Under the pieces are notes generated by a model. That model was not told the DNA's origin and searched no databases. It worked only from the letters and a program-made list of their open reading frames with translations. From an uncultured archaeon (lineage in GTDB: Archaea > Iainarchaeota > Iainarchaeia > Iainarchaeales > JAAZKV01), in the NCBI GenBank assembly GCA_964551375.1, contig CAZKBG010000001.1, positions 30,001-62,000 of the forward strand: DNA of 32,000 bases, given 5' to 3'. Positions 3,215 to 17,304 of this stretch are shown here, piece by piece. The stretch's first letter is position 1. Each line of letters starts with the position of its first letter. Position numbers and translations under genes: made by a program.

Positions 3215-6200
3215 ATGGGCGATTGTAAAGGAGAGTGTGGATGTGACAGGTCTGACATTTTGGGGGCAAGGAAATTTTTAATTCCGTTTGCCATAGTTTT
3301 AGTATTATTAATGGCCGTGACGGCGTTTGCGGTGCCTTTAGAGGCGCTAGGCGCATCTGTTGGGCCGGACAACGTTACAGTAACAATAAGTCCAGGAGTA
3401 ACTAATTGTGATACTCTTGGAAAGGAATTTACGGTAACGGTAAAAAATGAATTAACAAATGTTCATGGAGTGTATGAAGTAAGAGTGTATAGAAGCGATA
3501 CGGGAATTGACGCAAATAGTTTTGTTTGCGGCTCTGCGCCAGTTGGATGGACTCTTTCTGATTATGCTGGGGGAGACCCTAATTTAGAAGATTATGGTTA
3601 TTGTGAATACAAAACCAGAATGACAGGCGCGTATGTAATAACGCCTGGAACAAGCCTTGACTTTAAGTTCAAAGCAACAATGATTAAAAGCGATGCTTGT
3701 GAAAGTGTTTTCACTATTTCTTCGCTTGACAACGGACAGCCAATAGGAGACCACGAGTGGGACAACCCTCAAGTACTCATTGACTGCACTCAACCAGTTG
3801 TTGACAAGAAACTAGGAACTCCATACTTCAATTTGGATGGAGACGATTACATAACTCAAAACACAATGATAGCAGTAACATCAAGCGACATGGAAAAATG
3901 CGACCTTGGCGTAAACAACTGCACAGTATATTACACAGTTAACGGAGTAGAGCAGAAGCCAATGGTAAAAGAAGGCGAGGAAGCTCTTGCATTTGAGTTC
4001 AACTTTGAACAGGACTCAAGACACGATGTTAACTTAGTATGTGTTGATAACGCAGGAAACTCGACAACAATAAAAGAAACTGATTTTGTTGAAACAGTTC
4101 CTCCAGAAACAACAAAAACATACGGAAAGCCGTTCTACGAAGTTGACGGAACATTGCACTATATTACAAGCGCAACTCCAATAGATTTCAACGCGGTTGA
4201 TCCAAGCCCTCACCCAAGCGGAGTGAAGGATTTGAATTATAGAGTTACTCTAATTGATGACAGCGTATGCTTCAGAGGATGCACGGATGTTGAAGGAAAA
4301 GGGGATTGGATAACTACAACTCCTAATACTACAATCACCATCGCTGAACAATCATGCCATCTAATAGAGTTCCAGTCAGTTGATAATCTTGGAAACTTGG
4401 AAAACCTAAAACACCAGTGCGTGTTTGTTGATAACACAGATCCATTATTAACAAAAGAAATTGGAACACCAAGCATAATCGGGGCAGATGTTAATTGGGT
4501 AAGACAAGACACACCAATAACACTGACTTGCGAAGACCAGCAGCCACACCCAAGCGGGGATGTAACAATAAGCTGGCAGATAACGCTTGACGGAAACTTA
4601 GGCGAAGTACAGAGCGTTAATGACAATACAACAACAATTTACTTCCCAGAAGACTCAGTACATGTGCTTGACGCATGGTGCACTGATGCAGTAGGAAATG
4701 AATCAGCACACGATGTGCAGCTATTCAAAGTAGATTCAACTCCTCCAGAACTAACAAAAACAATGCTAGGGACAGAAGATGTTGATTACGTTGGAGACTG
4801 CCCTCCAGAAAGCCCTGAAGATATCTGCTTTGTAGCTGATAATGGAAGAGGCGGAGTGAACGCAATAGTAAGCGACCCTGATCCAACAGGATACGGATGC
4901 AACGTTGACAGCTCAACATGTGCATACGAAGTTTGGTGGACAGCTACAGTTCAACAATGTAAAGATGCTGAAGGACAAGGTTATAACGATGTAAATGGCG
5001 AATGCCTGCTAGATGTTGGAAGATTCGATGAAAACGGAACAAATATCCTATTCAGAAAAGATTCCACACATAGACTTGTTATAAACTGTAAAGATGCTTT
5101 AGGAAACGAAATGACAACGGATGTTGAAGTATTCAAAGTAGATTCAACACCTCCAGTAACAACAAAAACATACGGTACTCCAACAGTAGTAAAGGGAGAT
5201 TACCGCTGGATAACAACAGACACAAACATTACTCTAGAAGCAACTGACAACAAAGTAGGAGTGGATGAAACATTCTACCTTGTTACACAAATGCAATTGT
5301 CAGAAGAAGAGTGCTCACAAGTGTGCTCTGATAGAGAAGTATTCAGTGTTTTAGATGTGGAAGTTCCAGAATTCATGGAATACGAAGGACCATTCACAAT
5401 CGCTGAAGATTCTTGCCACAAAATACAATACTACTCAGTAGACAAATTAGGAAATACAGAGAGAGTAAAAGAACAGTGCGTATTTGTTGATACTGCGGCT
5501 CCAGAAGTTGTAAAAACTATTGGGGATCCAAAAGTGATTGACGGCGAACTAACTTTCATCTCACAACAAACTCCAATAACTCTAACCTGCACGGATGTAA
5601 AACCACACCCAGTTGGGGACGTGAATTTAATGTACAGGTACAGAGTAAGCACTGACTGCCAGGATTGGAATGCATGGTCATCATGGATTGATCCACCGGT
5701 AGGACAGGGAGAAAAGACAATATACTTCGAAGAAGATTCCTGCCACCAGCTTGAATACACATGCTCGGACGGATTAGGAAACGCTACTGAAGTAGAATCA
5801 GAAATAGATATTGTAGACACACAAGCTCCAGAAATTGACATAAACGTAGTTGGACCACAAATCGAACAGGCATGCCCTGGCGATATGGACGGCAACTGCT
5901 TGTACATAGATGGAGTGACAAAATTAGTGGTAACTGCAGTTGATCCGCAGCCTCATCCAGTGAACGGCGTAACCTGTGATTGGGATTACAAAGTAAGCGA
6001 AGGAGAGAAGACAGGACAAGGTGCAGAAGGAGTAACACCACCATTTGAAATCAACTTCCCAGAACAGTCAATGCACTCACTAAAAGTAGTGTGCAGAGAT
6101 GCTTTAGGAAATGACAATGGATTAGTAACAGAATACATTGTAGACAAAACTCCTCCAGTAATAAAGAAGAAATATTTGGGACCATACTTCTCAGACAATA

Positions 6201-7498
6201 ATGGAGTAGAATGGATTAATTCCCTAACAGAAATAGAAATAACAGCGGAGGATCCATTACCGCACCCATCAGGACTGAAATCACTTGAATACAGAATCAG
6301 TCTTGTAGCGGACAACTACTGCACAAGCCAGGAAATATGCCAGGACGCAGTTGGAAGCGGAGAATGGAATGATGTGGAAGGAAACGTAAATGTAGGTGAA
6401 CAGTCCTGCCACTTAATAGAAATAAAGGCAACAGACAATGTTGAAAAGACAGCAACACACAAACAATGTGTGTATGTTGATAACACACCTCCAACACCAG
6501 TAAAGACAGTTGGAACACCTCACACAAAGTGGACACCAGGACAAAACGGACAGCCAGGAAGTATCTTCTATCCATGGATAAATGATGCATGCTGGGCTGA
6601 TGTGAACGGAATAGACTGCTGGAAAGTTCCACTATACACGCCAATATCACTACAGTGCAATGATCCACTACCTCATCCAGTGAACAATTCAAAAGTATGT
6701 TTCAACGTGGAGTGGGATGCAACAGACATAACACAGAAGTATTGTAGAGGCATGGAAGGAGAGATAGGAGAAGATGGTTACTGCTGCCTATCAAACACAA
6801 CAGATAACTTCTACTTCGGAGAAGAAACAGAGCATAACCTGAAGTTCTACTGCGCAGATGCATTAGGAAACAAGGGGCTTGTTGACGATGAGAAGTTCAA
6901 GGTAGAAGGAACACCATTTGAGATAGAATTAAACAAGAAATGGAATCTAATCTCAGTTCCATTCGTATTGCTAGACAGCAATATAACAACAGTTCTAGAG
7001 AGCGACAGCGAAAACATTGCGGGAGTATGGACATACGACGCTATCACAAACCAGTGGTACGTATATAACCCATCAAGCCCAAGCACAAGCAACTTAGATA
7101 CAATGGAGCCGGGAAACGGTTACTGGGTAGCTGCATATAATCCAAGTGTATTGGAAATAGCAGGTAGTTTATTCAGCCCAATAACAACACCTCCTGATAA
7201 AGCTCTCAAAGCTGGGTGGAACCTAATAGGTTACTATGGCACAGACGGACAGTCAGTATATGACGGCCCAGATCACGCCGGAAGACCAGCAAGCTGCGTG
7301 CTATACTCGCTAGGAGAAACTCTACTAGATAAAGGATGGACAGCGCTACTCGGATACTGGGAGCCAAACAATCCAAATGCATGGGAAGAATATAGCTACC
7401 CAAGCAGAATGGATCCAGGCGCAGGATACTGGGTTAACGCAACAGAAGACAGCACATATAGCTATTCAACAGTTTGCGGCGGATTCTTTCTTAATTAA
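3215..7498 (+). CDS. Giant secreted surface protein with nine tandem Ig-like adhesin-type domains and a conserved C-terminal WNLI/GYWV module
   Basis: Uninterrupted 1427-aa ORF with an N-terminal hydrophobic signal/anchor (FLIPFAIVLVLLMAVTAFAVP). The domain-boundary motif V-D-x-T-x-P-x-x-x-K-x-x-G-x-P recurs nine times. Each is preceded by an H-x-L/I-x-Y/F-x-S/C-x-D-x-L/A-G-N-x-E pattern and a D-P-x-P-H-P-S/V-G motif. A TTG at 3260 would give a more canonical signal peptide (MGARKFLIPF...), so the start is uncertain. Confidence 0.9.
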   Translation: MGDCKGECGCDRSDILGARKFLIPFAIVLVLLMAVTAFAVPLEALGASVGPDNVTVTISPGVTNCDTLGKEFTVTVKNELTNVHGVYEVRVYRSDTGIDANSFVCGSAPVGWTLSDYAGGDPNLEDYGYCEYKTRMTGAYVITPGTSLDFKFKATMIKSDACESVFTISSLDNGQPIGDHEWDNPQVLIDCTQPVVDKKLGTPYFNLDGDDYITQNTMIAVTSSDMEKCDLGVNNCTVYYTVNGVEQKPMVKEGEEALAFEFNFEQDSRHDVNLVCVDNAGNSTTIKETDFVETVPPETTKTYGKPFYEVDGTLHYITSATPIDFNAVDPSPHPSGVKDLNYRVTLIDDSVCFRGCTDVEGKGDWITTTPNTTITIAEQSCHLIEFQSVDNLGNLENLKHQCVFVDNTDPLLTKEIGTPSIIGADVNWVRQDTPITLTCEDQQPHPSGDVTISWQITLDGNLGEVQSVNDNTTTIYFPEDSVHVLDAWCTDAVGNESAHDVQLFKVDSTPPELTKTMLGTEDVDYVGDCPPESPEDICFVADNGRGGVNAIVSDPDPTGYGCNVDSSTCAYEVWWTATVQQCKDAEGQGYNDVNGECLLDVGRFDENGTNILFRKDSTHRLVINCKDALGNEMTTDVEVFKVDSTPPVTTKTYGTPTVVKGDYRWITTDTNITLEATDNKVGVDETFYLVTQMQLSEEECSQVCSDREVFSVLDVEVPEFMEYEGPFTIAEDSCHKIQYYSVDKLGNTERVKEQCVFVDTAAPEVVKTIGDPKVIDGELTFISQQTPITLTCTDVKPHPVGDVNLMYRYRVSTDCQDWNAWSSWIDPPVGQGEKTIYFEEDSCHQLEYTCSDGLGNATEVESEIDIVDTQAPEIDINVVGPQIEQACPGDMDGNCLYIDGVTKLVVTAVDPQPHPVNGVTCDWDYKVSEGEKTGQGAEGVTPPFEINFPEQSMHSLKVVCRDALGNDNGLVTEYIVDKTPPVIKKKYLGPYFSDNNGVEWINSLTEIEITAEDPLPHPSGLKSLEYRISLVADNYCTSQEICQDAVGSGEWNDVEGNVNVGEQSCHLIEIKATDNVEKTATHKQCVYVDNTPPTPVKTVGTPHTKWTPGQNGQPGSIFYPWINDACWADVNGIDCWKVPLYTPISLQCNDPLPHPVNNSKVCFNVEWDATDITQKYCRGMEGEIGEDGYCCLSNTTDNFYFGEETEHNLKFYCADALGNKGLVDDEKFKVEGTPFEIELNKKWNLISVPFVLLDSNITTVLESDSENIAGVWTYDAITNQWYVYNPSSPSTSNLDTMEPGNGYWVAAYNPSVLEIAGSLFSPITTPPDKALKAGWNLIGYYGTDGQSVYDGPDHAGRPASCVLYSLGETLLDKGWTALLGYWEPNNPNAWEEYSYPSRMDPGAGYWVNATEDSTYSYSTVCGGFFLN
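3782..6904 (+). repeat. Array of ~9 divergent Ig-like protein-domain repeats (100-135 aa each) inside the 1427-aa CDS
   Basis: Boundaries by eye at about aa 189, 292, 405, 506, 642, 758, 867, 976 and 1088 (IDCTQP, VETVPP, VDNTDP, VDSTPP x2, VDTAAP, VDTQAP, VDKTPP, VDNTPP). Confidence 0.75.
6476..7498 (+). repeat. Copy A of the shared ~340-aa C-terminal module (paralogous to 12005-13012)
   Basis: From VDNTPPTPVKTVGTPHTKWTPGQNGQPGSIFYPWINDACW to the C-terminus. It aligns colinearly with the C-terminus of the next protein, with many identical blocks (NGQPGSIFYPWIN, VNGIDCWKV, SKVCFNVEWDA, EHNLKFYC, NKKWNLIS, EPGNGYWVAA, LKAGWNLIGYYGT, RMDPGAGYW). Confidence 0.9.
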
Positions 7499-7525
7499 GA
7501 ATCCGTCCTTTAATTTTTTTAGGGG

Positions 7526-10500
7526 ATGAAGAACTTGAATGAAAATTTCAACAAGAAAGTGAACCTAAAAAAATTAAGAACAGTAATGATTATTGGAATG
7601 GTATTGGCAATCTCAATGATTGCCATTGCCTGTCCAACAACAACACTAACAACAACTCCAATAAATCCTAATTCTTACGGGTGGTTTAACCCAATAGTAA
7701 AAGTTTCTATTAATCTTTCACCAGGAAGCGTTCCTGGAATTATAAAATACACTTATGATTTAAACAAAAAAAGAACTCCTTACCCTGATTTGAATTGGCT
7801 GGGAGACACTAACTATCTTCACGGAATAAAAACAATCAGATACGCTGCTGTGGGAAAAGACGGAAGCAAAGAACCTGAAAAAACTTACACTGTGCAGGTT
7901 GATAGCATTGCCCCTGAAACTTTAGGATTCTCGCTTGACACCACAAATGGAGTAATTTACAATCCAGGCGCAAGAGCATTTGATATTAATTATGGGATAG
8001 TAAAAGTAAGGATAATATCAGGGGACAATACCTCTGGACTAAGCACCTGTCAATTAAATTTTGATTATAACGCGCTCAACCCGACAGCAGGGTGGGATGC
8101 TCCAACTCCAAACGTTGATTTAACTTATGGACACTTGCACTATTATGACACTAACGGGATAAAAGTAATTGTAATTAAATGCACTGATAAGGGACTTAAT
8201 ACTAGCACGCCAGCACTATCTCCATTTACATTTAGAGTAATTAATCCATATGATCGGACTCCTCCAATTTCAACACTAATAATAGATACTAACTCAACAA
8301 GCACGGAAGAATGTTATAATGACAAAGTGCTTGTTTCAATAATAGCTGAAGACCCGCAAAGCGGAGTGGCAGCAATAAAATACTGTATTGATACAAATGA
8401 CACTTGCGTTCCAAATATTAATTACACAACCCAGTTGCTTTTTACTGATGGAAAGAAATACTTGCGGTACAGGGCAATAAACCTGCACGGCGTGGAAGAA
8501 AACATAAACAGCGAAATGATTAACATTGATAAGAATGGATGCGGAAGAGAATGCGAACCCCACACAATAGGGTACTGGAAACAACCATGTAAAGGACACT
8601 ACGAACATGAAACACAAGCATCAATGCTTGGATACCTTGCGGAAATACAAGCGACAAGCGATTACTTTGACTTTATTTCAAGCTTTAATGGAATGTGCGA
8701 TATATTAGACCCTGATGAGCCCGCAACTATGAAGCAAAGGGCAAAACAACAATTTCTTGCACTTTGGCTGAACGTGGTGACAGACAAACTTTTCACTTAC
8801 ACTACAATAAGCCTCCCCGCATACACTGATGCGAACACAGTGGGCGGAGCAATAACAGTTATACAAAATAATATTAGCTCAAATTCCGAAAAAGCAAAAA
8901 CAATTGCTGACAAGTTAAACAATGGAATTGGAATTGTGGATTGTCAGCCCTCAAAACCGCTAAAGATAATTGCACAAAAAATTGTTTGCGAAAATGAAGC
9001 TGACTTGCCAAACTGGGGACTTGGTGGACCAAATATTACTGCCCTAACAGCGATGAGCTTTGTTGCAACCCACCCAGGATGCAAATTTGATTCTAACTGG
9101 TACTTCCAATGGGCAAAATCAGGCACCTCAAATCCTGGAAGCAACACAGGAGAAGCAGCACCAAACACAGGGTGGAAAACATTTGGACCAACCAATGCTC
9201 AGGGAGAGGTAAATATACTAATATCTGATTTTAACAAAACAAACAAAATTTGGGTAAGAGAAGTATTCAAACAAGGATACGTTTCGTTTACTTATGACAC
9301 AAACGGAAACTCAAATAATGTAAGCGCGGAAATTTACTGCTACAAGGATGTATTTAACTATGATAACTATGACAGTATTGGGGCTCCTCAATTAGGAAGG
9401 ACTTATTACTGTGTGGCATGGAATGCTATAAAAAAATATGAATGCACAAGCGACGCAAATTGCAGTGATGGAGTATATTGTAACGGAGCGGAGAAATGCA
9501 ATCTCCAAAATCACAAATGTGAAAAAGGAATACTTATTGATTGCAATTCATTAAACGATCAGTGCAATAGCGGAGTGTGCGATGAGAATGTTGATAAGTG
9601 CATAGCTAATCCTGTGCCAAATGGAACTACTTGTAATGATAATTTATTCTGCAATACTGGTGAAGTGTGCAATAATGGAAAATGTGGAAATGGGGGAGTA
9701 AGGGATTGCAGTGATTACAATATACTTGGAATATCAACTTGTCTTTGGGACCCTGATGGTTTAGATTATACTTGGGATTTTAGAAGTTCCTTTACAAGCA
9801 TTTGCAATGAAGAACTTGACAAGTGCGCTGTTGGCGATTACAACATAACACACATTGTTGATGAAAAGTGCGCTGAATGCCTTGGAGATTCTGACTGCCC
9901 TCAGCCGGAAAATGCATGCATGGAAAACAGATGCCAAAACTACAAATGCGCACTAACTCCAAAACCATCAACTACTTCGTGCAATAACGGGGCTTATTGT
10001 GACGGGGCTGATAGGTGTGATGGAAACGGAATGTGCCTTGCAACTGGGTCTAGCGTCGACTGCAGCGGGCTTGATGATCAGTGCAATAGCGGAGTGTGCG
10101 ATGAGAATGTTGATAAGTGCATAGCTAATCCTGTGCCAAATGGAACTACTTGTAATGATAATTTGTTTTGCAATGTTGGTGAAGTGTGCGATAATGGAAA
10201 ATGTGAAAGCGGACAGGCAAGAGATTGTAGCGACAATAATATACTTGGGATATCTTCATGTTTTTGGAATCCTGATGGTTTAGATTATACTTGGGATTTT
10301 AGAAATCCTTTCACAAGTATTTGTGATGAAGGGAATGATAAGTGTACAACTGGGGACTTAAACATTAATCACACAATTGATCCAAAATGCACTAAATGCA
10401 TGACGGACTCGGACTGCCCAGCGCTTGAAAATTCATGCATGGAAAATAGATGCATAGAATACAAATGCGTTGAAACACCAAAACCATCTCAAACAACATG

Positions 10501-13012
10501 TGACAATGGACTCTATTGTGATGGCGCTGATAGGTGTGATGGGAATGGAATGTGCTTTGCGACTGGGTCTAGCGTGGATTGCAGTGGACTTGATGATCAG
10601 TGCAATAGCGGAGTGTGCGATGAAAACCAAAATTCATGTGTAAAAACTCCTGCAAGAAACGGAGCAGCGTGTGATGATAACTTATTTTGTAATACTGGTG
10701 AAGTGTGCAGCAATGGAATTTGTGGAAACGGAAATACAAAAGACTGCAGCGAAAATAATATCCTTGGAGTATCATCCTGCTTGTGGATACCTGATGGTTT
10801 AGATTATACTTGGGATTTTAGAAATCCTTTCACAAGTATTTGTGATGAAGGGAATGATAAATGTACAACAGGGGACTTAAACATCAATCACACAATTGAT
10901 GAAAAATGTGCTGAGTGCATGATAGATGCTGATTGCCCAACGCTTGAAAACTCCTGTGCGGAGAATAAATGCTTAAACTATAAATGTGTTGAAACTCCAA
11001 GGCCGACAACAACAGTTTGTGATAATGGAACTTATTGTGATGGCGCTGATAGGTGTGATGGAAATGGGGCGTGTAAATCTACAGGTACTCCAGTAGATTG
11101 TAGTTCACTAAATAATCAATGCAATAGTGGAGTGTGTGATGAGAATATTGAAGGGTGCGTAGCACAGCCTGTGCCAAATGGAACTACTTGTAATGATGAT
11201 TTGTTTTGCAATACTGGTGAAATATGCCTTAATGGAACGTGTGGCGGTGGGCAGGCGAGAGATTGTTCAGGATTTAACTTAAACCCAATTGGACAGTGCG
11301 ATTACTTCCCTGATGGATATGCTTGGACTTATGACTACTTCCTTGGATTCTTAAGCCAGTGCAGTGAAGAACAAGACAAATGCACTGATGGCAACATAAC
11401 AATAACTTCTTACTGCAGCACAGAGAATTGCGACGCAGAATGTGAAACGGATCTTGATTGCAGCGCCCACTTTGATGGAAACGTGTGCAATTATAGGGGA
11501 CTTTGCGGAGCAGAGCCAAGCTGCGCATGCAGTTACCAAAAAGAACTTTGCCCTGCACCAGGAACAATAGTTGATGGGTACTGCTACTGGGGAAATGGAG
11601 CATGTACAAGCACTGGATGCGATTTGAACAAAACAAGAATGGATTGCTACAAGCGATGCGACCCAATACTTGGGCCTGTGGAACTTCCAATTATAAAAAC
11701 AACCAAATTTGTTGGACAGCCAAAATCCCATTGCAATTATTTAGGAGATTTAAACGAAGCAGAAGAATGTTTATTTGTAACTACTGCTACTGAATTTATG
11801 CTTGATTCAAACGATTCAAATGCAAGCACATATTACAGACAGAGATGGAAAGAGGATTATAACAGTACCTGGGGAAATTGGAGCGAGTGGAATGAATACA
11901 CTCAGCCGTTTAATTACCTTGAAGATTCAATACATGAACTTGAATATTATTCAATAAATGAAATTTGCGAAATCGAAGAAAAACACAATTATGAAATTGA
12001 CATAGTGGACACAAAAGCGCCAAGCGCAAAGAAAACAGTGGAGAACCCAAAAGTAAAATGGACTCCGTCAAAGAATGGACAACCTGGTAGCATATTCTAT
12101 CCGTGGATAAATAATGCGTGTTGGAATGATGTGAACGGAATAGACTGTTGGAAAGTAACTCTTGATACGCCAATATCATTTGACTGCAATGATTTACAAC
12201 CTCATCCATCAAACAACTCAAAAGTATGTTTCAACGTGGAGTGGGATGCTAATGACATCACGCCAAAATACTGTACTCAAATGCAAGGGACAATAGGGCA
12301 GGACGGTTACTGCTGTGTTCCTGATGATGCTAGAAAATTCAATTTCCTTGAAGAAACAGAACACAACTTAAAATTCTATTGTAAAGATGTGCTTGGAAAC
12401 AAAAGCCCAATTGATGATGAGAAATTCAAAGTAGGGGGAACAGAGTTTGAAATCCAATTGAATAAAAAATGGAACCTAATCTCAATACCATTTGCGCTCC
12501 TTGATAGCAATGTGGCTGAAGTAATTGATGAAATTGACCAAAATATTGAATCAGTGTGGACTTATGATGCATTTACTGATCAATGGTATGTGTATAGACC
12601 GCTAAGCCCAAGCACAAGCAACTTAGAAACAATAGAACCAGGAAATGGCTACTGGGTAGCGGCGCTCAACCCAGCAAAATTAGTTCTTGGAGGAAGCTTG
12701 TTTAATCCAATAGCAACCCCTCCTCAAAAATCGCTCAAAGCTGGATGGAACTTAATAGGGTATTATGGCACTGAAGGGCAGATGGGTTATTACGGACCAA
12801 TTGGCTCAGGAAAAACAGCAGGATGCGAACTATACTCGCTTGGAAACACAATTCTTGACAAAGGATGGACTTCATTATTCACATTTTGGGCGCTAAGAAC
12901 CCCAAGTCAGTGGCTAGATTTGAGCTATTACAACAGAATGGATCCAGGCGCAGGATACTGGATATCTGTGCCTAGTGATGATGTTTTAAGCTACTCTTCA
13001 ACATGCAGTTAG
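7526..13012 (+). CDS. Giant secreted cysteine-rich surface protein (Ig-like N-terminal domains, 4 tandem Cys-rich modules, shared C-terminal WNLI/GYWV module)
   Basis: Uninterrupted 1828-aa ORF with an N-terminal hydrophobic segment (VMIIGMVLAISMIAIA). The N-terminal third has VDSIAPET / DRTPPIST domain boundaries. The central part is four 173-aa Cys-rich modules. The C-terminal 335 aa are paralogous to the preceding gene. It starts only 27 nt after the previous stop. Confidence 0.9.
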   Translation: MKNLNENFNKKVNLKKLRTVMIIGMVLAISMIAIACPTTTLTTTPINPNSYGWFNPIVKVSINLSPGSVPGIIKYTYDLNKKRTPYPDLNWLGDTNYLHGIKTIRYAAVGKDGSKEPEKTYTVQVDSIAPETLGFSLDTTNGVIYNPGARAFDINYGIVKVRIISGDNTSGLSTCQLNFDYNALNPTAGWDAPTPNVDLTYGHLHYYDTNGIKVIVIKCTDKGLNTSTPALSPFTFRVINPYDRTPPISTLIIDTNSTSTEECYNDKVLVSIIAEDPQSGVAAIKYCIDTNDTCVPNINYTTQLLFTDGKKYLRYRAINLHGVEENINSEMINIDKNGCGRECEPHTIGYWKQPCKGHYEHETQASMLGYLAEIQATSDYFDFISSFNGMCDILDPDEPATMKQRAKQQFLALWLNVVTDKLFTYTTISLPAYTDANTVGGAITVIQNNISSNSEKAKTIADKLNNGIGIVDCQPSKPLKIIAQKIVCENEADLPNWGLGGPNITALTAMSFVATHPGCKFDSNWYFQWAKSGTSNPGSNTGEAAPNTGWKTFGPTNAQGEVNILISDFNKTNKIWVREVFKQGYVSFTYDTNGNSNNVSAEIYCYKDVFNYDNYDSIGAPQLGRTYYCVAWNAIKKYECTSDANCSDGVYCNGAEKCNLQNHKCEKGILIDCNSLNDQCNSGVCDENVDKCIANPVPNGTTCNDNLFCNTGEVCNNGKCGNGGVRDCSDYNILGISTCLWDPDGLDYTWDFRSSFTSICNEELDKCAVGDYNITHIVDEKCAECLGDSDCPQPENACMENRCQNYKCALTPKPSTTSCNNGAYCDGADRCDGNGMCLATGSSVDCSGLDDQCNSGVCDENVDKCIANPVPNGTTCNDNLFCNVGEVCDNGKCESGQARDCSDNNILGISSCFWNPDGLDYTWDFRNPFTSICDEGNDKCTTGDLNINHTIDPKCTKCMTDSDCPALENSCMENRCIEYKCVETPKPSQTTCDNGLYCDGADRCDGNGMCFATGSSVDCSGLDDQCNSGVCDENQNSCVKTPARNGAACDDNLFCNTGEVCSNGICGNGNTKDCSENNILGVSSCLWIPDGLDYTWDFRNPFTSICDEGNDKCTTGDLNINHTIDEKCAECMIDADCPTLENSCAENKCLNYKCVETPRPTTTVCDNGTYCDGADRCDGNGACKSTGTPVDCSSLNNQCNSGVCDENIEGCVAQPVPNGTTCNDDLFCNTGEICLNGTCGGGQARDCSGFNLNPIGQCDYFPDGYAWTYDYFLGFLSQCSEEQDKCTDGNITITSYCSTENCDAECETDLDCSAHFDGNVCNYRGLCGAEPSCACSYQKELCPAPGTIVDGYCYWGNGACTSTGCDLNKTRMDCYKRCDPILGPVELPIIKTTKFVGQPKSHCNYLGDLNEAEECLFVTTATEFMLDSNDSNASTYYRQRWKEDYNSTWGNWSEWNEYTQPFNYLEDSIHELEYYSINEICEIEEKHNYEIDIVDTKAPSAKKTVENPKVKWTPSKNGQPGSIFYPWINNACWNDVNGIDCWKVTLDTPISFDCNDLQPHPSNNSKVCFNVEWDANDITPKYCTQMQGTIGQDGYCCVPDDARKFNFLEETEHNLKFYCKDVLGNKSPIDDEKFKVGGTEFEIQLNKKWNLISIPFALLDSNVAEVIDEIDQNIESVWTYDAFTDQWYVYRPLSPSTSNLETIEPGNGYWVAALNPAKLVLGGSLFNPIATPPQKSLKAGWNLIGYYGTEGQMGYYGPIGSGKTAGCELYSLGNTILDKGWTSLFTFWALRTPSQWLDLSYYNRMDPGAGYWISVPSDDVLSYSSTCS
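9440..11640 (+). repeat. Tandem in-frame 519-bp (173-aa) cysteine-rich module, about 4 copies (last one divergent)
   Basis: The landmark CAGTGCAATAGCGGAGTGTGCGATGA (QCNSGVCDE) starts at 9560, 10079 and 10598. A variant (CAATGCAATAGTGG...) starts at 11117. The period is exactly 519 nt. Each unit has fixed Cys spacing (..NGxYCDGADRCDGNGxC..QCNSGVCDE..C..NGTTCNDNLFCNTGEVC..G.C..DCS..). Confidence 0.95.
12005..13012 (+). repeat. Copy B of the shared ~340-aa C-terminal module (paralogous to 6476-7498)
   Basis: From VDTKAPSAKKTVENPKVKWTPSKNGQPGSIFYPWINNACW to the C-terminus. At DNA level it shares exact stretches with copy A, for example tcaaaagtatgtttcaacgtggagtgggatgc at 6689-6720 and 12218-12249. 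Confidence 0.9.
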
Positions 13013-13112: not shown

Positions 13113-13137
13113 AGGAGTATTTGGGGGATTGATTTTC

Positions 13138-14196
13138 ATGGGGTCAGCAAAGTATTTTTCAATGCTAATTTTTTCTATTTTTATTTTAGGAGTTGCTCTT
13201 GCGGCTCCAGGGATACCACACCAGTTTTATGGATTTGTGACAATCAACGGAGCGCCGGCAAATGGAGCGTTAATAGTTGCAAAAATAAATAACGTTGAAG
13301 TTTCAAGAACCCTGAGCTCAAACGGAAATTACGGGTACAATCCAAATATTTTCTATGTTCCAGACCCAAACAGCAACAACGCTGGAAAAAGAATTGACTT
13401 TTATTTAAGCGGAACGCTTGTAGCAAACAAATACTTTGAAAGTGGAACAAGCACAAAACTTGATTTTAATTTAGGAATAGCTCCATTTTGCGGAGACACT
13501 AGCTGCAACGCAGGAGAAACATGCTCAACATGCGCAACTGATTGCGGAGTATGCCCTTCAACAGGTGGCGGAGGGGGAGGCGGCGGTGGCGGAGGAGCTC
13601 CAGTAGCCCAAAGCATTAATGTTCAAGTAACAGGAAACTGCCTTGGAAAACCAATAGTATTGAAAGCAACAGCAGGAACAACAGCACTTGGCTCAGCAAC
13701 AGTAAGCGTAAAACACAACAACAATACTTCCCAAACAACAACAGATGCAAATGGCGGAATAACATTCACATTCAATGAACTTGGAAAATACGAGTTCACA
13801 GTAACAAAGAACTCCTATAGCCCTGCAACAAAACAAGTTGATGTATTAAACTGCACAGGGGAAACAACAAACACAGGGACTGGAAGCGGCGCAGGTGCTG
13901 ATTTATGCTCAAACAAAAACTGCAACGACTTAAACCCATGCACTGATGATTCATGCGCGCTAGGCGTATGCAACTATGCATTCAAATCAGATGGAACAAC
14001 ATGCGGAACAGAACTAACATGCCAGAAAGGAGAATGCGTTGCAAAAATTGTGGAACCAGTTAACACAGCTACTGGGGCAGGGGCTGCAACAGGATTATTC
14101 GCACTTGGAACAGATACTGCTATGCCAATAGTTCTTGTAATAGTAATAATTGCCATATTTGCAATACTATTGCTATTAAGCAGAAGAAAAAAGTGA
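13138..14196 (+). CDS. Cys-rich, tail-anchored surface protein with Gly11 linker and carboxypeptidase-regulatory-like beta-sandwich domain
   Basis: Signal peptide (FSMLIFSIFILGVALAAPG). Cys knot CGDTSCNAGETCSTCATDCGVC. Eleven consecutive Gly at 13564-13596. The segment VQVTGNCLGKPIVLKATAG...TTDANGGITFTFNELGKYEFTVTKNSYSP fits the CarboxypepD_reg-like pattern. A second Cys-rich block (NPCTDDSCALGVCNYAFKSDGTTCGTELTCQKGEC) resembles the modules of the 1828-aa protein. A C-terminal TM helix is followed by RRKK. Confidence 0.85.
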   Translation: MGSAKYFSMLIFSIFILGVALAAPGIPHQFYGFVTINGAPANGALIVAKINNVEVSRTLSSNGNYGYNPNIFYVPDPNSNNAGKRIDFYLSGTLVANKYFESGTSTKLDFNLGIAPFCGDTSCNAGETCSTCATDCGVCPSTGGGGGGGGGGGAPVAQSINVQVTGNCLGKPIVLKATAGTTALGSATVSVKHNNNTSQTTTDANGGITFTFNELGKYEFTVTKNSYSPATKQVDVLNCTGETTNTGTGSGAGADLCSNKNCNDLNPCTDDSCALGVCNYAFKSDGTTCGTELTCQKGECVAKIVEPVNTATGAGAATGLFALGTDTAMPIVLVIVIIAIFAILLLLSRRKK

Positions 14197-14224
14197 AAAT
14201 TAGTTAAATAAAAAAATGATTTGT

Positions 14225-14269: not shown

Positions 14270-14554
14270 TTACTTCTTCTTTTTTTTGTTCCCAAAAATC
14301 TTATCCCACTGACTTTGTTTAACCCCATGAAATCCTACTGTAGTGCCTATATTTGATTCAGAAATCCTTGGGGTAATATATTTTAATTTTGGCTGGAGAA
14401 CTTGCGCAGCCTTTGTATACGCTTGATGAGAATCAGCAATCCTTCTCTGGCTTCCGGTTTCAACAATCATCGGACCGTGGCGCGTGCCGGTTTCCTTATT
14501 ATGAAAAGTCATTACAAGTTTTCTTTTCGGACCTTTAGGTTTCATAAAAATCAT
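14270..14554 (-). CDS. Small basic protein with Lys-rich tail, probably co-transcribed with the pilin-signal giant protein
   Basis: 94 aa, rich in K/R, ending in WDKIFGNKKKKK. Its ATG lies 2 nt downstream of the TAA stop of the 904-aa gene on the same strand. No recognisable family. Confidence 0.5.
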   Translation of the reverse strand: MIFMKPKGPKRKLVMTFHNKETGTRHGPMIVETGSQRRIADSHQAYTKAAQVLQPKLKYITPRISESNIGTTVGFHGVKQSQWDKIFGNKKKKK

Positions 14555-14556
14555 CT

Positions 14557-17271
14557 TTAAACAAGTGGAACTATTTGAAGCCCTGCGATTTGAGAATACC
14601 CGCCTATTGAAGGAACATCAATCACAACAGTGTCGCTTCCTCCAACAGAAATATTAGAAAATACACTATACTGCTCTCCTTCCATCCATCTTGCAAGAGT
14701 GGCTGAGTGAGTTCCGGCATTTGTTTTAGTTCCTTGGCTTATGCCTCCAACAGAAAGAGTGTATTGGCAGGAAGTAGCATCCCAAGGGCTGCAATAAAGC
14801 ACAAAGTTGTAATCATTTGCGCTAAGCCCGGTTAGGGTAATGCTTGAAGCCGCGCCTGAGCGATAAATATAGCCGTTAAACATTGCATCATTTAGATTTG
14901 TGCTTCCACCCCACCCTCCGCCAAATCCTCCAAGCGTCATTGAAACCCCTGTAACATTTCCATTAGCATCAAGAACATTTGGAGAGCTCATGCTTGATGA
15001 AGTCAAGTTCCAATAGTAGGTGTTTCCATCATTATACATTCCGCTTCCAGAATATGATGAGGGGCTGTAATCAAAATTAATCGCTCGTTTTCTTCTTGCA
15101 TCCTGCGATGGGGTTTGCGCGGTTAAATTATTTGAAGTAATTATCTGCAGTCCTGACATGTTTTGCCCTATTGTAATTTTAATAGGGTCATTATAATCCG
15201 ACACATGAATGTTGTTAATTGTAGTGTACTGCTCTCCCGCCATCCACCTTGACAAAAACTTTGCATGCCCATTTCCGGCAGATTTTGAGCCGTAATTCAC
15301 AAGGTCAGTTGCAATTGTAAAGTTGTTCACAGTTGCGTCATCAGGAACGCCGTACAATACTAAATTGTAATCCCCTGCGGGAAGTCCAATTATTTTGACT
15401 AAACTTCCGTTGTAAATATATCCGTTAAACATTGAGTCATTCACTCCGCTTGTCCCTCCCCAGTTTCCAGCCATGTTTGAAATTACCGCAATCCCTTCTG
15501 TGGAATTATTATTCCCGTCCTTAATTGTGGATGATGTGGTGGTTCCGTTTGCAAGAGGATTCCATTTGTAAGTATTCCCATCGTTGAATTTTCCATTTCC
15601 AGTGTAAGAACCGTCCCCTCCGCAGTCAAAGTGAAGAGACTGCTTTAGATATGGATTTTGTTCAGAAGGAAGAGCTGTGACAAGGGAAGATCCGTTTACT
15701 GGAATAATCTGCCATCCTGAAATATTTGAGCTTACATTCACCTTAATTGGATCGTTATAATCCGAAACATGAACATTGCTGAATGTGTGATATTGTTCCC
15801 CCTCAACCCAGCTCGCAAGATTTCTATTGCTCCCTGAAGAAGTGCCTGCAGTTTTTGCACCATAGCTTGCAAGATCAGTTGAAACAGTGTGAGTATCAAC
15901 TCCAGTAGGCGCAACATAAAGAACAAGATTGTAATCCCCTGCAGGAAGACCGATTATTTTTGCGAGATTTCCTGTATAGCTGTAATTTTCAAACATTGAG
16001 TCATTAACTCCATTAGAAAGTCCCCAACCTCCAGTAAAGTTTGATGTAAAAGAAACTCCTGGGACTGCATTGTCATTTGCATCCTTTATTGAAGGCGAGT
16101 ATAAGGTAGTGTTACCAACAGTATTCCATTTATATGATTGGCCGTTGTTGAATTTTCCGCTCCCTGTGTAAAGACCACTCCCTGCAAAGTCAAAGAATAT
16201 TCCATAAGAAATTGGATTAGCAAGAACAGTAATTGTAATCAAAAAGTCGCTTGTGTTTGGGTTGCCAGCAGTGTCAATGCATCTGATATAAACATTATTA
16301 CTTCCAGTCGCAAGCCCGCTAATAGTTGCCGAGTGGGAAGTCACTGAATCAGTAAAACTATTGGTCATGCTTGCATATGCGACTCCTGTAGAAGTTGAAT
16401 ATCTGCAAGCCGCATTTTCATCCGTGGTGATTGTGAGTCCGTAAGTTGTAGTTCCAAACGCAAGCGCGCTGGGGTTTGAGCCTGATATAACCGGAGGGGT
16501 GGCATCAGCGCCAACTGTAATAGTTACAAGCGTGTCGTCTGAGATAGAGCTGTTTGAAACACTTTGACATTTAATATAAATATTATTGGCTCCAGTTACT
16601 AACGAACCCACAGTTGCTGAGTGGGTTAATTCACTTCCTGAAAAACTATTAGCTTGGCTGGAAAAAGCAACTCCACTAGAAGAATCATACTTACAATTAG
16701 CATTAACATCAGTGTTAATATCAAGAGCATAACTTGCTGTTCCATAAGCAAGGGTGGCTGGGTTTGATGCGCTGATTATTGGAGGCGCAGCAAGAGCAAC
16801 AGCTCCGCGTGCAATGCAATCAATGTAAAGTGTTCCATAATCCACTGTTTTTTCTAAACCAGCATCAGAAACATAATTTACTTTAACAGTGTAAGTCTTT
16901 TGATTCGGGGAGTCACAGGCGGGAAGGTTGCTCAATGAAAAGCTTTTCACATCATTTTGAGCAAATGAAAGACTTGAACCGATTGGATAATTTGTGTCAT
17001 TAATTATAAACCCGGTAATTCTAATTGTTTCCCCAGTGTTATTTTGGAGAACAAATAATCCATTAGCATCAGTTCCAATTGCAGCGTCATTTACTCCTAC
17101 AATTTGGGACATTGCATTTATTTTGCTTGATTTGGATGCTCCCCCCGAAGAGCTTTGGGCAGTTGTATCGACAAGAAGCCCGACAACAACAAGCGCAATT
17201 ACAATTACAATTGCAATAATTACAAGATATTCGATTGTCCCTTGGGCGCGGTTGTTTTTATTTTCAGCCAT
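14557..17271 (-). CDS. Large surface protein with archaeal class III (type IV prepilin-like) signal peptide and repeated beta-sandwich / lectin-like domains
   Basis: 904-aa ORF. The N-terminus is MAENKNNRAQGTIEYLVIIAIVIVIALVVVGLLV: a charged n-region, an RA|QGTIE site with Gln at +1 and Glu at +5, then a ~22-residue hydrophobic helix. Two ~93-aa repeats and three ~175-185-aa repeats follow. There is no C-terminal anchor. Confidence 0.9.
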   Translation of the reverse strand: MAENKNNRAQGTIEYLVIIAIVIVIALVVVGLLVDTTAQSSSGGASKSSKINAMSQIVGVNDAAIGTDANGLFVLQNNTGETIRITGFIINDTNYPIGSSLSFAQNDVKSFSLSNLPACDSPNQKTYTVKVNYVSDAGLEKTVDYGTLYIDCIARGAVALAAPPIISASNPATLAYGTASYALDINTDVNANCKYDSSSGVAFSSQANSFSGSELTHSATVGSLVTGANNIYIKCQSVSNSSISDDTLVTITVGADATPPVISGSNPSALAFGTTTYGLTITTDENAACRYSTSTGVAYASMTNSFTDSVTSHSATISGLATGSNNVYIRCIDTAGNPNTSDFLITITVLANPISYGIFFDFAGSGLYTGSGKFNNGQSYKWNTVGNTTLYSPSIKDANDNAVPGVSFTSNFTGGWGLSNGVNDSMFENYSYTGNLAKIIGLPAGDYNLVLYVAPTGVDTHTVSTDLASYGAKTAGTSSGSNRNLASWVEGEQYHTFSNVHVSDYNDPIKVNVSSNISGWQIIPVNGSSLVTALPSEQNPYLKQSLHFDCGGDGSYTGNGKFNDGNTYKWNPLANGTTTSSTIKDGNNNSTEGIAVISNMAGNWGGTSGVNDSMFNGYIYNGSLVKIIGLPAGDYNLVLYGVPDDATVNNFTIATDLVNYGSKSAGNGHAKFLSRWMAGEQYTTINNIHVSDYNDPIKITIGQNMSGLQIITSNNLTAQTPSQDARRKRAINFDYSPSSYSGSGMYNDGNTYYWNLTSSSMSSPNVLDANGNVTGVSMTLGGFGGGWGGSTNLNDAMFNGYIYRSGAASSITLTGLSANDYNFVLYCSPWDATSCQYTLSVGGISQGTKTNAGTHSATLARWMEGEQYSVFSNISVGGSDTVVIDVPSIGGYSQIAGLQIVPLV
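14560..16209 (-). repeat. Three tandem ~175-185-aa domain repeats (aa 355-904), lectin/CBM-like by pattern
   Basis: Shared blocks across three copies: FD..G.G.YTG.GKFN(D/N)G.(S/T)YKWN, GGWG...GVNDSMF.(N/G)Y.Y.G, IIGLPAGDYNLVLY, W..GEQY....N(V/I)HVSDYNDPIK, G(W/L)QI(I/V). Confidence 0.85.
16222..16788 (-). repeat. Two tandem ~93-aa domain repeats (aa 162-350) in the 904-aa protein
   Basis: PPIISASNPATLAYGTASYALDINTDVNANCKYDSSSGVAFSSQANSFSG..THSATVGSLVTGANNIYIKCQ aligns with PPVISGSNPSALAFGTTTYGLTITTDENAACRYSTSTGVAYASMTNSFTD..SHSATISGLATGSNNVYIRCIDTAGN. By eye this pattern recurs in many metagenomic Ig/Fn3-like surface proteins. Confidence 0.85.
17167..17271 (-). other. Class III signal peptide / pilin-like N-terminal helix (predicted prepilin-peptidase site RA|QGTIEY)
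   Basis: aa 1-35 of the 904-aa protein. This is the pattern known for archaeal pilins/archaellins and DUF361-type pilin-like proteins (Q at +1, acidic residue at +5, long hydrophobic stretch). Confidence 0.75.
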
Positions 17272-17294: not shown

Positions 17295-17304
17295 AAAATA
17301 TAAA
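17295..17304 (-). promoter_or_regulatory. TATA-like box upstream of the 904-aa gene
   Basis: The minus strand reads tttatatttt, centred about 29 nt upstream of the ATG at 17271. Confidence 0.5.

Follow-up and report, generated by a model that had tools for sequence, protein, structure and literature searches.

We analyse a 32,000-nucleotide stretch of DNA (the window; C1:30001-62000 of an assembly of 1.09 Mb, 10 contigs and 93% completeness) from an uncultured archaeon of the order Iainarchaeales, and in it a single long gene that we consider probably to encode an archaeal modular type IV pilin acting as an adhesin. The open reading frame (ORF) at 14557..17271 on the reverse strand specifies a protein of 904 amino acids (aa) with the N-terminus MAENKNNRAQGTIEYLVIIAIVIVIALVVVGLLV. 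From this end, it is composed of a short leader peptide, a hydrophobic helix, a Ser-rich linker with a putative globular pilin domain, two Fn3-like repeats and three copies of a domain of ~185 aa which run to the C-terminus. The signal, the repeats and the architecture as a whole are present at these coordinates and lie far beyond what chance would produce.

The original prediction, made from the letters of the window, had described the N-terminus as an archaeal prepilin-like signal, and we find this signal to be genuine. The family PF04021 (Class_IIIsignal) matches residues 7-29 with 24.1 bits for the whole protein and 27.0 bits for its N-terminal 165 aa, where the curated cut-off is 23.7 bits. 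The leader peptide MAENKNNRA (residues 1-9; 17245..17271, reverse strand) is delimited by this match and by a junction common to the paralogues of the protein. It is followed by QGTIEYLVIIAIVIVIALVVVGLL, which agrees with the class III motif and has Thr instead of Ser in what is otherwise a QxSxE-type sequence. Cleavage by a prepilin peptidase is predicted after Ala9, which would leave Gln at position +1 and Glu at position +5 (QGTIE). This Q+1/E+5 junction, where (R/K/S)(G/A) meets QGTIEY, is common to 12 paralogues: the mature N-terminus QGTIEYLV(I/V)(I/V/M)A(I/V)VIV... is found in 12 ORFs of the genome, always behind a short, basic leader with G or A as its last residue. In total, the genome has 29 matches to PF04021.

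The alpha1 hydrophobic helix of the mature pilin (residues 10-35, QGTIEYLVIIAIVIVIALVVVGLLVD; 17167..17244, reverse strand) is shared with the same paralogues. Residues 1-24 of the mature protein are identical (24/24) to those of a 153-aa pilin encoded at C1:425173-425634, and 11 further paralogues have a near-identical helix. We reject recent gene conversion as the source of this sharing: the DNA encoding the helix is identical between paralogues at only 51-64 of 90 nucleotides (57-71%), whereas up to 24 residues are identical among the first 30 of the mature proteins. Because the DNA has diverged while the amino acids are conserved, the identity of the helix appears to have been kept by selection.

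Alignment with the paralogues indicates that residues 1-155 make up a full pilin module, to which ~750 aa are appended. Behind the helix, self-comparison separates a Ser-rich linker (residues 36-59) from an N-terminal domain (residues 60-155); together these (residues 36-155; 16807..17166, reverse strand) contain the Cys pair C119/C152 and are delimited by homology to 11 paralogues. To these paralogues, whose lengths range from 153 to 646 aa, residues 1-155 are 31-43% identical, and the module aligns end-to-end with the pilin-sized ones (153-227 aa). C119 and C152 are almost invariant in the alignment and the 153-aa pilin stops one residue past the second Cys. Since the end of the short pilin coincides with the start of the passenger, the 904-aa protein can be viewed as a whole pilin with a ~750-aa appendage. 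PF04021 is passed by 11 of the 12 aligned module sequences. The original prediction had put the mature protein at about 10 times the size of a structural pilin, a figure that hinges on the pilin chosen for comparison: it is ~6 times as long as the 153-aa pilin with the same helix and ~9-15 times as long as the 61-102-aa pilins of C1:634-641 kb.

The module is common in this lineage. A profile search finds it in 152 of 196 species genomes of the same order and in all 37 other genomes of the window's family, mostly with 8-19 copies each. Among the matches listed, the open frames that bear it range from 159 to 1236 aa, and in metagenomic proteins the same module stands ahead of GLUG or beta-helix passengers. 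Judged by these sequences, pilin-plus-passenger proteins appear to form a very large lineage-specific family with hundreds of members. By the definition of a modular pilin, in which a linker joins an N-terminal pilin module to one or more modules that are not particular to pilus biology (Raynaud et al. 2021), the 904-aa protein qualifies as one in its architecture, with a pilin module followed by two Fn3-like and three jelly-roll domains; both of these domain types are present in non-pilin bacterial proteins too.

To check its reading, the original prediction had proposed a search of the rest of the genome for genes of the prepilin peptidase, the assembly ATPase and the platform protein, and all three kinds are found, so that the lack of peptidase or machinery, which it had named as grounds for rejecting its reading, does not apply to this genome. 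There are two Peptidase_A24 genes (C1:639114-640226 and C1:697030-697839), each with two catalytic Asp motifs and one of them with archaeal Arc_PepC / Arc_PepC_II C-terminal domains. Seven T2SSE-family ATPases of the PilB/FlaI type score above the Pfam cut-off, and ten T2SSF platform genes are arranged as 5 pairs, each of which adjoins an ATPase. The window itself had been said to contain no pilus assembly genes, which is right, the closest being at C1:94.6-97.9 kb. The 153-aa pilin with the identical helix belongs to a locus at C1:420-431 kb, in which an 802-aa ATPase and two platform genes are followed by this pilin and then by six genes with pilin-like N-termini. The locus closest to the window (C1:94623-97923) has a 474-aa ATPase and two platform genes beside a 1553-aa surface protein. 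We see no pilin-like N-terminus among its ORFs and so have no ground for pairing it with the 904-aa gene; its machine may depend on class III proteins encoded at dispersed sites, for example those at C1:44557, 66469 and 70199.

Now we consider the passenger. It begins with two repeats of ~96 aa, which self-BLAST aligns at 50% identity (E 1e-23 to 1e-30) and which were delimited by self-BLAST and profile: repeat 1 covers residues 161-256 with the conserved Cys pair C193/C235 (16504..16791) and repeat 2 residues 257-352 with the likewise conserved pair C289/C331 (16216..16503), both on the reverse strand. Of the earlier label for these repeats, 'Ig/Fn3-like', the Fn3-like part is supported by profile matches and by Pfam matches of homologous segments. 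A profile of the repeat matches Fn3 domains of two proteins, chitinase A1 (1k85, E 0.006) and titin. When 12 homologous segments are compared with Pfam, eight match Pur_ac_phosph_N (Fn3-like) and four match fn3, the two copies in the window falling below every threshold. Repeats of this type are found in many bacterial and archaeal surface proteins.

The rest of the passenger consists of three copies of the ~185-aa domain, all on the reverse strand: R1 (residues 353-538; 15658..16215), R2 (residues 539-724; 15100..15657) and R3 (residues 725-904, the C-terminal end; 14560..15099). In self-BLAST, the three are 40-53% identical to each other with E of 1e-21 to 1e-58, and the motifs quoted in the original prediction, IIGLPAGDYNLVLY and GEQY...HVSDYNDPIK, are located in repeats 1 and 2. 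The domain had been described as resembling a lectin or a carbohydrate-binding module (CBM), a description that stands at the level of fold and fails at the level of sequence family. An AlphaFold model of R2 built from a 14-row alignment (predicted local distance difference score, pLDDT, of 75.6; predicted TM-score, pTM, of 0.78) is beta-rich and jelly-roll-like, and an earlier model from a 3-row alignment has the same fold class. The top PDB matches of the R2 model in Foldseek are CBM35, CBM6, CBM36 and CBM61, together with equivalent receptor-binding domains of larger proteins (E 5e-5 to 1e-3, target-normalised TM up to ~0.55, identity 10-16%). Direct assignment of the domain to a family failed: neither as a single sequence nor as a 26-sequence profile does the repeat have a match in Pfam, NCBIfam or the sequences of the PDB, and no Pfam CBM match is meaningful (CBM_4_9 in one of the 26 members, E 0.85). 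In summary, the triplicated domain is modelled as a jelly roll of the CBM6/35/36 type, a likeness of fold only, and from this model we infer that it may bind carbohydrate.

An exhaustive search of 1.84 billion cluster representatives with the domain profile returns 328 proteins at E <= 1e-3 (~330 clusters, counted at 50% identity). The best match is P0002, an orthologue of 901 aa from a metagenome with 73% identity, and none of the order's 195 other species genomes has the domain. The matching proteins are usually large, with 2-6 copies; in several of the scanned proteins, Ig I-set domains are interleaved with these copies, and the few named carriers come from Pedosphaera and the Verrucomicrobiae (e.g. 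Pedosphaera parvula WP_007415680.1). Among 150 listed domain proteins, only P0002 and P0039 have a class III signal; the latter has 457 aa and one copy of the domain, closest to R3 (47%). Conserved motifs recur through the family (NxDFG...G.AA.G..DxWN, DPMY, YxxYxYGHG, W.EG.QYV.F and GLQI; P0028-P0176). In a further member, P0118 (611 aa, aquifer metagenome, L010:276-7836), two copies stand behind a plain transmembrane anchor, and the gene lies ~3.5 kb from that of a 756-aa T2SSE ATPase. In other uncultured organisms, the domain may likewise be linked to type IV filament systems.

Comparison with P0002 reveals that divergence is distributed unevenly over the protein. Identity is 77% in the signal peptide and helix (residues 1-35), 85% in the pilin domain, 87.5% and 76% in the two Fn3-like repeats, and 55%, 87% and 60% in R1, R2 and R3. 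The copies pair one-to-one between the two proteins (R1 with R1, R2 with R2 and R3 with R3), so the triplication is older than the split of the two lineages. Set beside the conserved R2, R1 and R3 are fast-evolving: their divergence is spread evenly along their length and is much faster than that of the stalk (76-88%). At the sequence level, this fast change fits ligand-facing modules under diversifying selection, and it suggests either such selection or a relaxed constraint on two of the three heads.

Directly downstream lies a small basic gene that ends in a Lys tail (14270..14554, reverse strand). It had been reported as a 94-aa ORF beginning 2 nt past the stop codon of the 904-aa gene, which is true of the longest ORF. 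The start is probably Met4 at 14545: the entry for this gene in the protein collection (P0207) has 91 aa and begins at Met4, and all orthologues begin at the same position, which makes a 91-aa product (pI 10.6) and a gap of 11 nt the probable arrangement. That the ORF is spurious is ruled out by its orthologues, of which P0209 (89 aa, 85% identical) follows P0002 on its contig after 10 nt and another (90 aa, 56-58% identical) is found in a congener, G128; weaker homologues in two other families share the C-terminal motif HG.P..W..IFGKKKKK. The protein has a pI of 10.6-11.2, is without a signal peptide and has no match in Pfam or NCBIfam.

The original prediction had suggested that this small ORF may be a dedicated partner of the adhesin. 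As such, it could be a chaperone, a regulator or a co-displayed subunit that is co-transcribed and translationally coupled with the long gene, and its position would agree with this: it is on the same strand, 2-11 nt past the stop with no clear promoter between, and the pair is adjacent also on the only other adhesin-bearing contig (P0002 of 901 aa and P0209 of 89 aa, 10-nt gap). However, at ~85% identity this second adjacency is expected from shared ancestry alone, and in G128 the orthologue is flanked by two PCNA genes, on the opposite strand and with its own TATA-like box, in a genome that has no copy of the triplicated domain. Our genome has the PCNA pair as well (C1:580870-582477; 77-82% identity to the G128 genes), but here the two stand side by side with no small gene between them. 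Furthermore, the weaker homologues in the two other families are not beside class III proteins, and the high pI, the Lys tail and the missing signal peptide suggest a protein of a cytoplasmic, nucleic-acid-binding type. Given the synteny with the PCNA genes, we reject the partnership as improbable and read the small gene, from sequence comparison, as an unrelated and apparently independently mobile neighbour of the adhesin gene. Reading the sequence between the two genes, we see no clear promoter or strong terminator, and co-transcription with the adhesin gene here is possible. The family of the small gene is uncharacterised and patchy, and the gene has moved within one genus (window 14270-14554, reverse strand; L002:1501-1773). 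On its other side, a surface protein (window 13129-14196, forward strand) is convergent with the small gene, as is another (L004:1849-3204, reverse strand) in G105, a genome of another family. The C-termini of both surface proteins have the same make-up, a block rich in Cys (CxDxNPCTxDxC...) ahead of a transmembrane helix and a basic tail; the shared arrangement may be fortuitous or a vestige of synteny.

The surroundings of the long gene add to this picture. A TATA-like box read from the sequence (TTTATATTTT; 17295..17304, reverse strand) lies 24-33 nt 5' of the ATG, a spacing that agrees with the archaeal norm and implies a leaderless transcript or one with a very short leader. At the other end, a tract of seven T follows a weak hairpin in the convergent intergenic region (14210..14216, reverse strand); it is weak evidence for a possible archaeal terminator of the 904-aa and small genes. 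Just upstream, at 3215-13012 on the forward strand, two giant proteins of 1427 and 1828 aa have OmpL47-type beta-barrel matches (NCBIfam NF047446), which places the modular pilin at the end of an island of surface proteins. The mature 904-aa protein is computed to be acidic (pI 4.55) with 22 N-glycosylation sequons, and we count both properties toward its surface character.

If the protein is a modular type IV pilin, as we think probable, its class III signal would insert it into the membrane and one of the two A24 prepilin peptidases would cut off the 9-residue leader between MAENKNNRA and QGTIEY. With its alpha1 helix and its pilin domain of ~120 aa, it would then be handled by a type IV filament machine in the same way as the short pilin of 153 aa. 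The likeliest such machine would be the ATPase with two platform proteins at C1:420-431 kb, whose short pilin shares the helix. The C-terminal 750 aa would stand outside the cell as two Fn3-like spacers and three CBM-like jelly rolls, which a pilus or short pseudopilus would present as a multivalent adhesin, either at its tip or at sparse points along its length; the ligand would probably be a glycan on a host cell or particle. In favour of the modular pilin, we count the complete identity of the helix with that of the locus pilin over 24 residues, kept in spite of the diverged DNA; in favour of ligand-facing modules, we count the faster divergence of R1 and R3 relative to the stalk. The original prediction had left the choice between a tip adhesin or minor pilin and a bindosome-like assembly. 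A pilin-borne adhesin is the best reading of the protein, while a substrate-binding protein of a classical bindosome is rejected: the protein has no substrate-binding-protein domain and there is no ABC transporter gene among the neighbours scanned.

Several observations weigh against a modular pilin. No assembly gene lies within ~47 kb of the 904-aa gene, so that the pairing with the C1:420-431 kb locus is drawn from helix identity and nothing else. The module profile has no significant match to solved archaeal pilins (8q30, E 0.39; 6w8u, E 1.4), and the likeness of the triplicated domain to CBMs is confined to the fold (TM 0.35-0.55, 10-16% identity) and unaccompanied by a Pfam CBM match. The shaft of a filament may lack the room for a passenger of 750 aa, and the occurrence of one helix in at least 12 proteins could equally be explained if the helix is a membrane-anchoring device. 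In an alternative reading, the leader is cleaved and the protein never enters a long pilus; its helix would stay in the membrane or in a short stub and the pilin handle would be a surface anchor or pseudopilus, in the manner of a bindosome, so that the class III signal would serve to sort and anchor a dozen surface proteins of different kinds. This would account for a helix found in twelve paralogues with very different C-termini, much as in the Sulfolobales sugar-binding proteins of one bindosome machine (PMC13705601), and it would sit well with the very bulky passenger and with the position of the gene, which is remote from all pilus loci and part of an island encoding other giant surface proteins. 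Yet the protein appears to keep, beyond the helix, a full globular pilin domain with its Cys pair, it has neither a substrate-binding-protein domain nor an ABC transporter gene nearby, and bacterial pilins with comparably large modules do enter pili (PMC8179133). We regard an anchor of this kind as possible rather than likely.

The original prediction had also allowed for a helix that is never cleaved, in which case the motif would only mimic a class III signal and the protein would be a type II membrane adhesin, held by its N-terminal transmembrane anchor and independent of pilus machinery. The PF04021 score of the whole protein, barely above the cut-off (24.1 against 23.7 bits), and the lack of assembly genes in the window would be in line with this. 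It is difficult to reconcile, however, with a junction and helix that match residue for residue a pilin inside a type IV pilus locus, with the passing of PF04021 by all but one of the 12 aligned module sequences, with two intact A24 peptidases in the genome, and with the strong amino-acid constraint on the helix despite its diverged DNA. We think an uncleaved anchor very improbable.

Returning to the modular pilin, archaea with small genomes (DPANN-type) are believed to rely on attaching to other cells and, to our knowledge, their adhesins are almost uncharacterised; nor do we know of a pilin-plus-passenger design that has been worked out experimentally outside bacteria. The 904-aa protein is a clean archaeal case of this design and lends itself to experiment, with a cleavage site that can be predicted and with a locus for assembly and two peptidases that can be put forward as candidates. 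Its repeat also brings to light an uncatalogued family of ~330 clusters that Pfam does not list and for which no structure has been solved; the modelled fold suggests glycan binding, and the uneven divergence of the three copies marks the modules of first interest for specificity. Taking these aspects jointly, we can tentatively formulate a wider reading, which we think rather unlikely to hold in full. The ~185-aa repeat would be a new CBM-like glycan-binding family that was grafted in triplicate onto a pilin, R1 and R3 would be the rapidly diversifying determinants of specificity for host surface glycans of an episymbiotic archaeon, and through the shared helix one machine would display at least 12 interchangeable adhesins. 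The context for this is that the domain is otherwise found almost only in giant surface proteins, and that R1 and R3 are at 55-60% identity to P0002 against ~85% for the rest.

How does this protein compare with known systems? Modular pilins have been established experimentally in bacteria, where Streptococcus sanguinis PilB carries a vWA module and PilC a lectin module (PMC8179133, PMC9934059). The catalogue of such proteins covers >1,200 proteins in 264 architectures, from bacteria only, and the word 'archaea' is absent from the paper (PMC8179133). Like PilB and PilC (the latter with a ConA-like lectin), the 904-aa protein combines a class III signal, a small pilin module, a linker and bulky, putatively ligand-binding modules; its passenger includes a lectin-type beta-sandwich and its proposed role is that of a filament-presented adhesin. 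In contrast to them, it is archaeal, with an Epd/PF04021-type Q+1 signal and not the bacterial IPR012902 motif, and neither its pilin module nor its passenger is homologous in sequence to those of the bacterial proteins. Its passenger has five domains (two Fn3-like repeats and three jelly rolls) rather than one module, and its gene is distant from any pilus locus.

Among archaea, a 2026 survey of type IV filaments reports for Nanobdellati/DPANN a System 1 whose loci have two platform genes, and associates archaeal filament systems with large Ig-fold adhesin-like proteins, with class III signal substrate-binding proteins, and with class III signal adhesin-like and galactose-binding-domain proteins (PMC13705601). 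The loci of our genome resemble the Epd-type System 1 in having two platform genes per ATPase, and the large Ig-fold adhesin-like proteins of the surveyed loci are a parallel to the protein studied here (PMC13705601). Unlike the System 1 adhesin-like proteins, however, the 904-aa gene is dispersed, outside a filament locus, and has many paralogues (mostly 8-19 family members per genome in its own genus), and its passenger domain matched no arCOG or Pfam family. With the bindosome proteins of the Sulfolobales (GlcS, AraS and TreS), it has in common that it is not of pilin size, that it shares a class III N-terminus with proteins of diverse C-termini, and that such proteins are encoded away from the single machine serving them. 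It differs from them by having no substrate-binding-protein fold and no adjacent ABC transporter, and by apparently keeping a complete globular pilin domain.

The passenger domain has its own relatives. With CBM6, CBM35, CBM36 and CBM61 (PDB 2w1w, 7ay3, 8j3x, 2xon), the R2 model shares the beta jelly-roll sandwich, whereas the ~185-aa domain is ~55 residues longer and has conserved motifs of its own (YxWN, NDxMF, EGxQY and GLQI). Its relatives in sequence include the verrucomicrobial giant Ig I-set proteins such as Pedosphaera parvula WP_007415680.1, which have 2-6 copies of the domain at profile E values down to 1e-66; in contrast to our protein, these are bacterial, have Sec signals and alternate the domain with Ig I-set domains, and they have no pilin module. 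Compared with all of these systems, the 904-aa protein fits the known kind of modular pilin and, as a single gene, is not surprising, its module heading hundreds of proteins in this lineage. What sets it apart is the combination of a five-domain passenger, an uncatalogued domain family, fast-evolving R1 and R3, and a place in a surface-protein island distant from the pilus loci.

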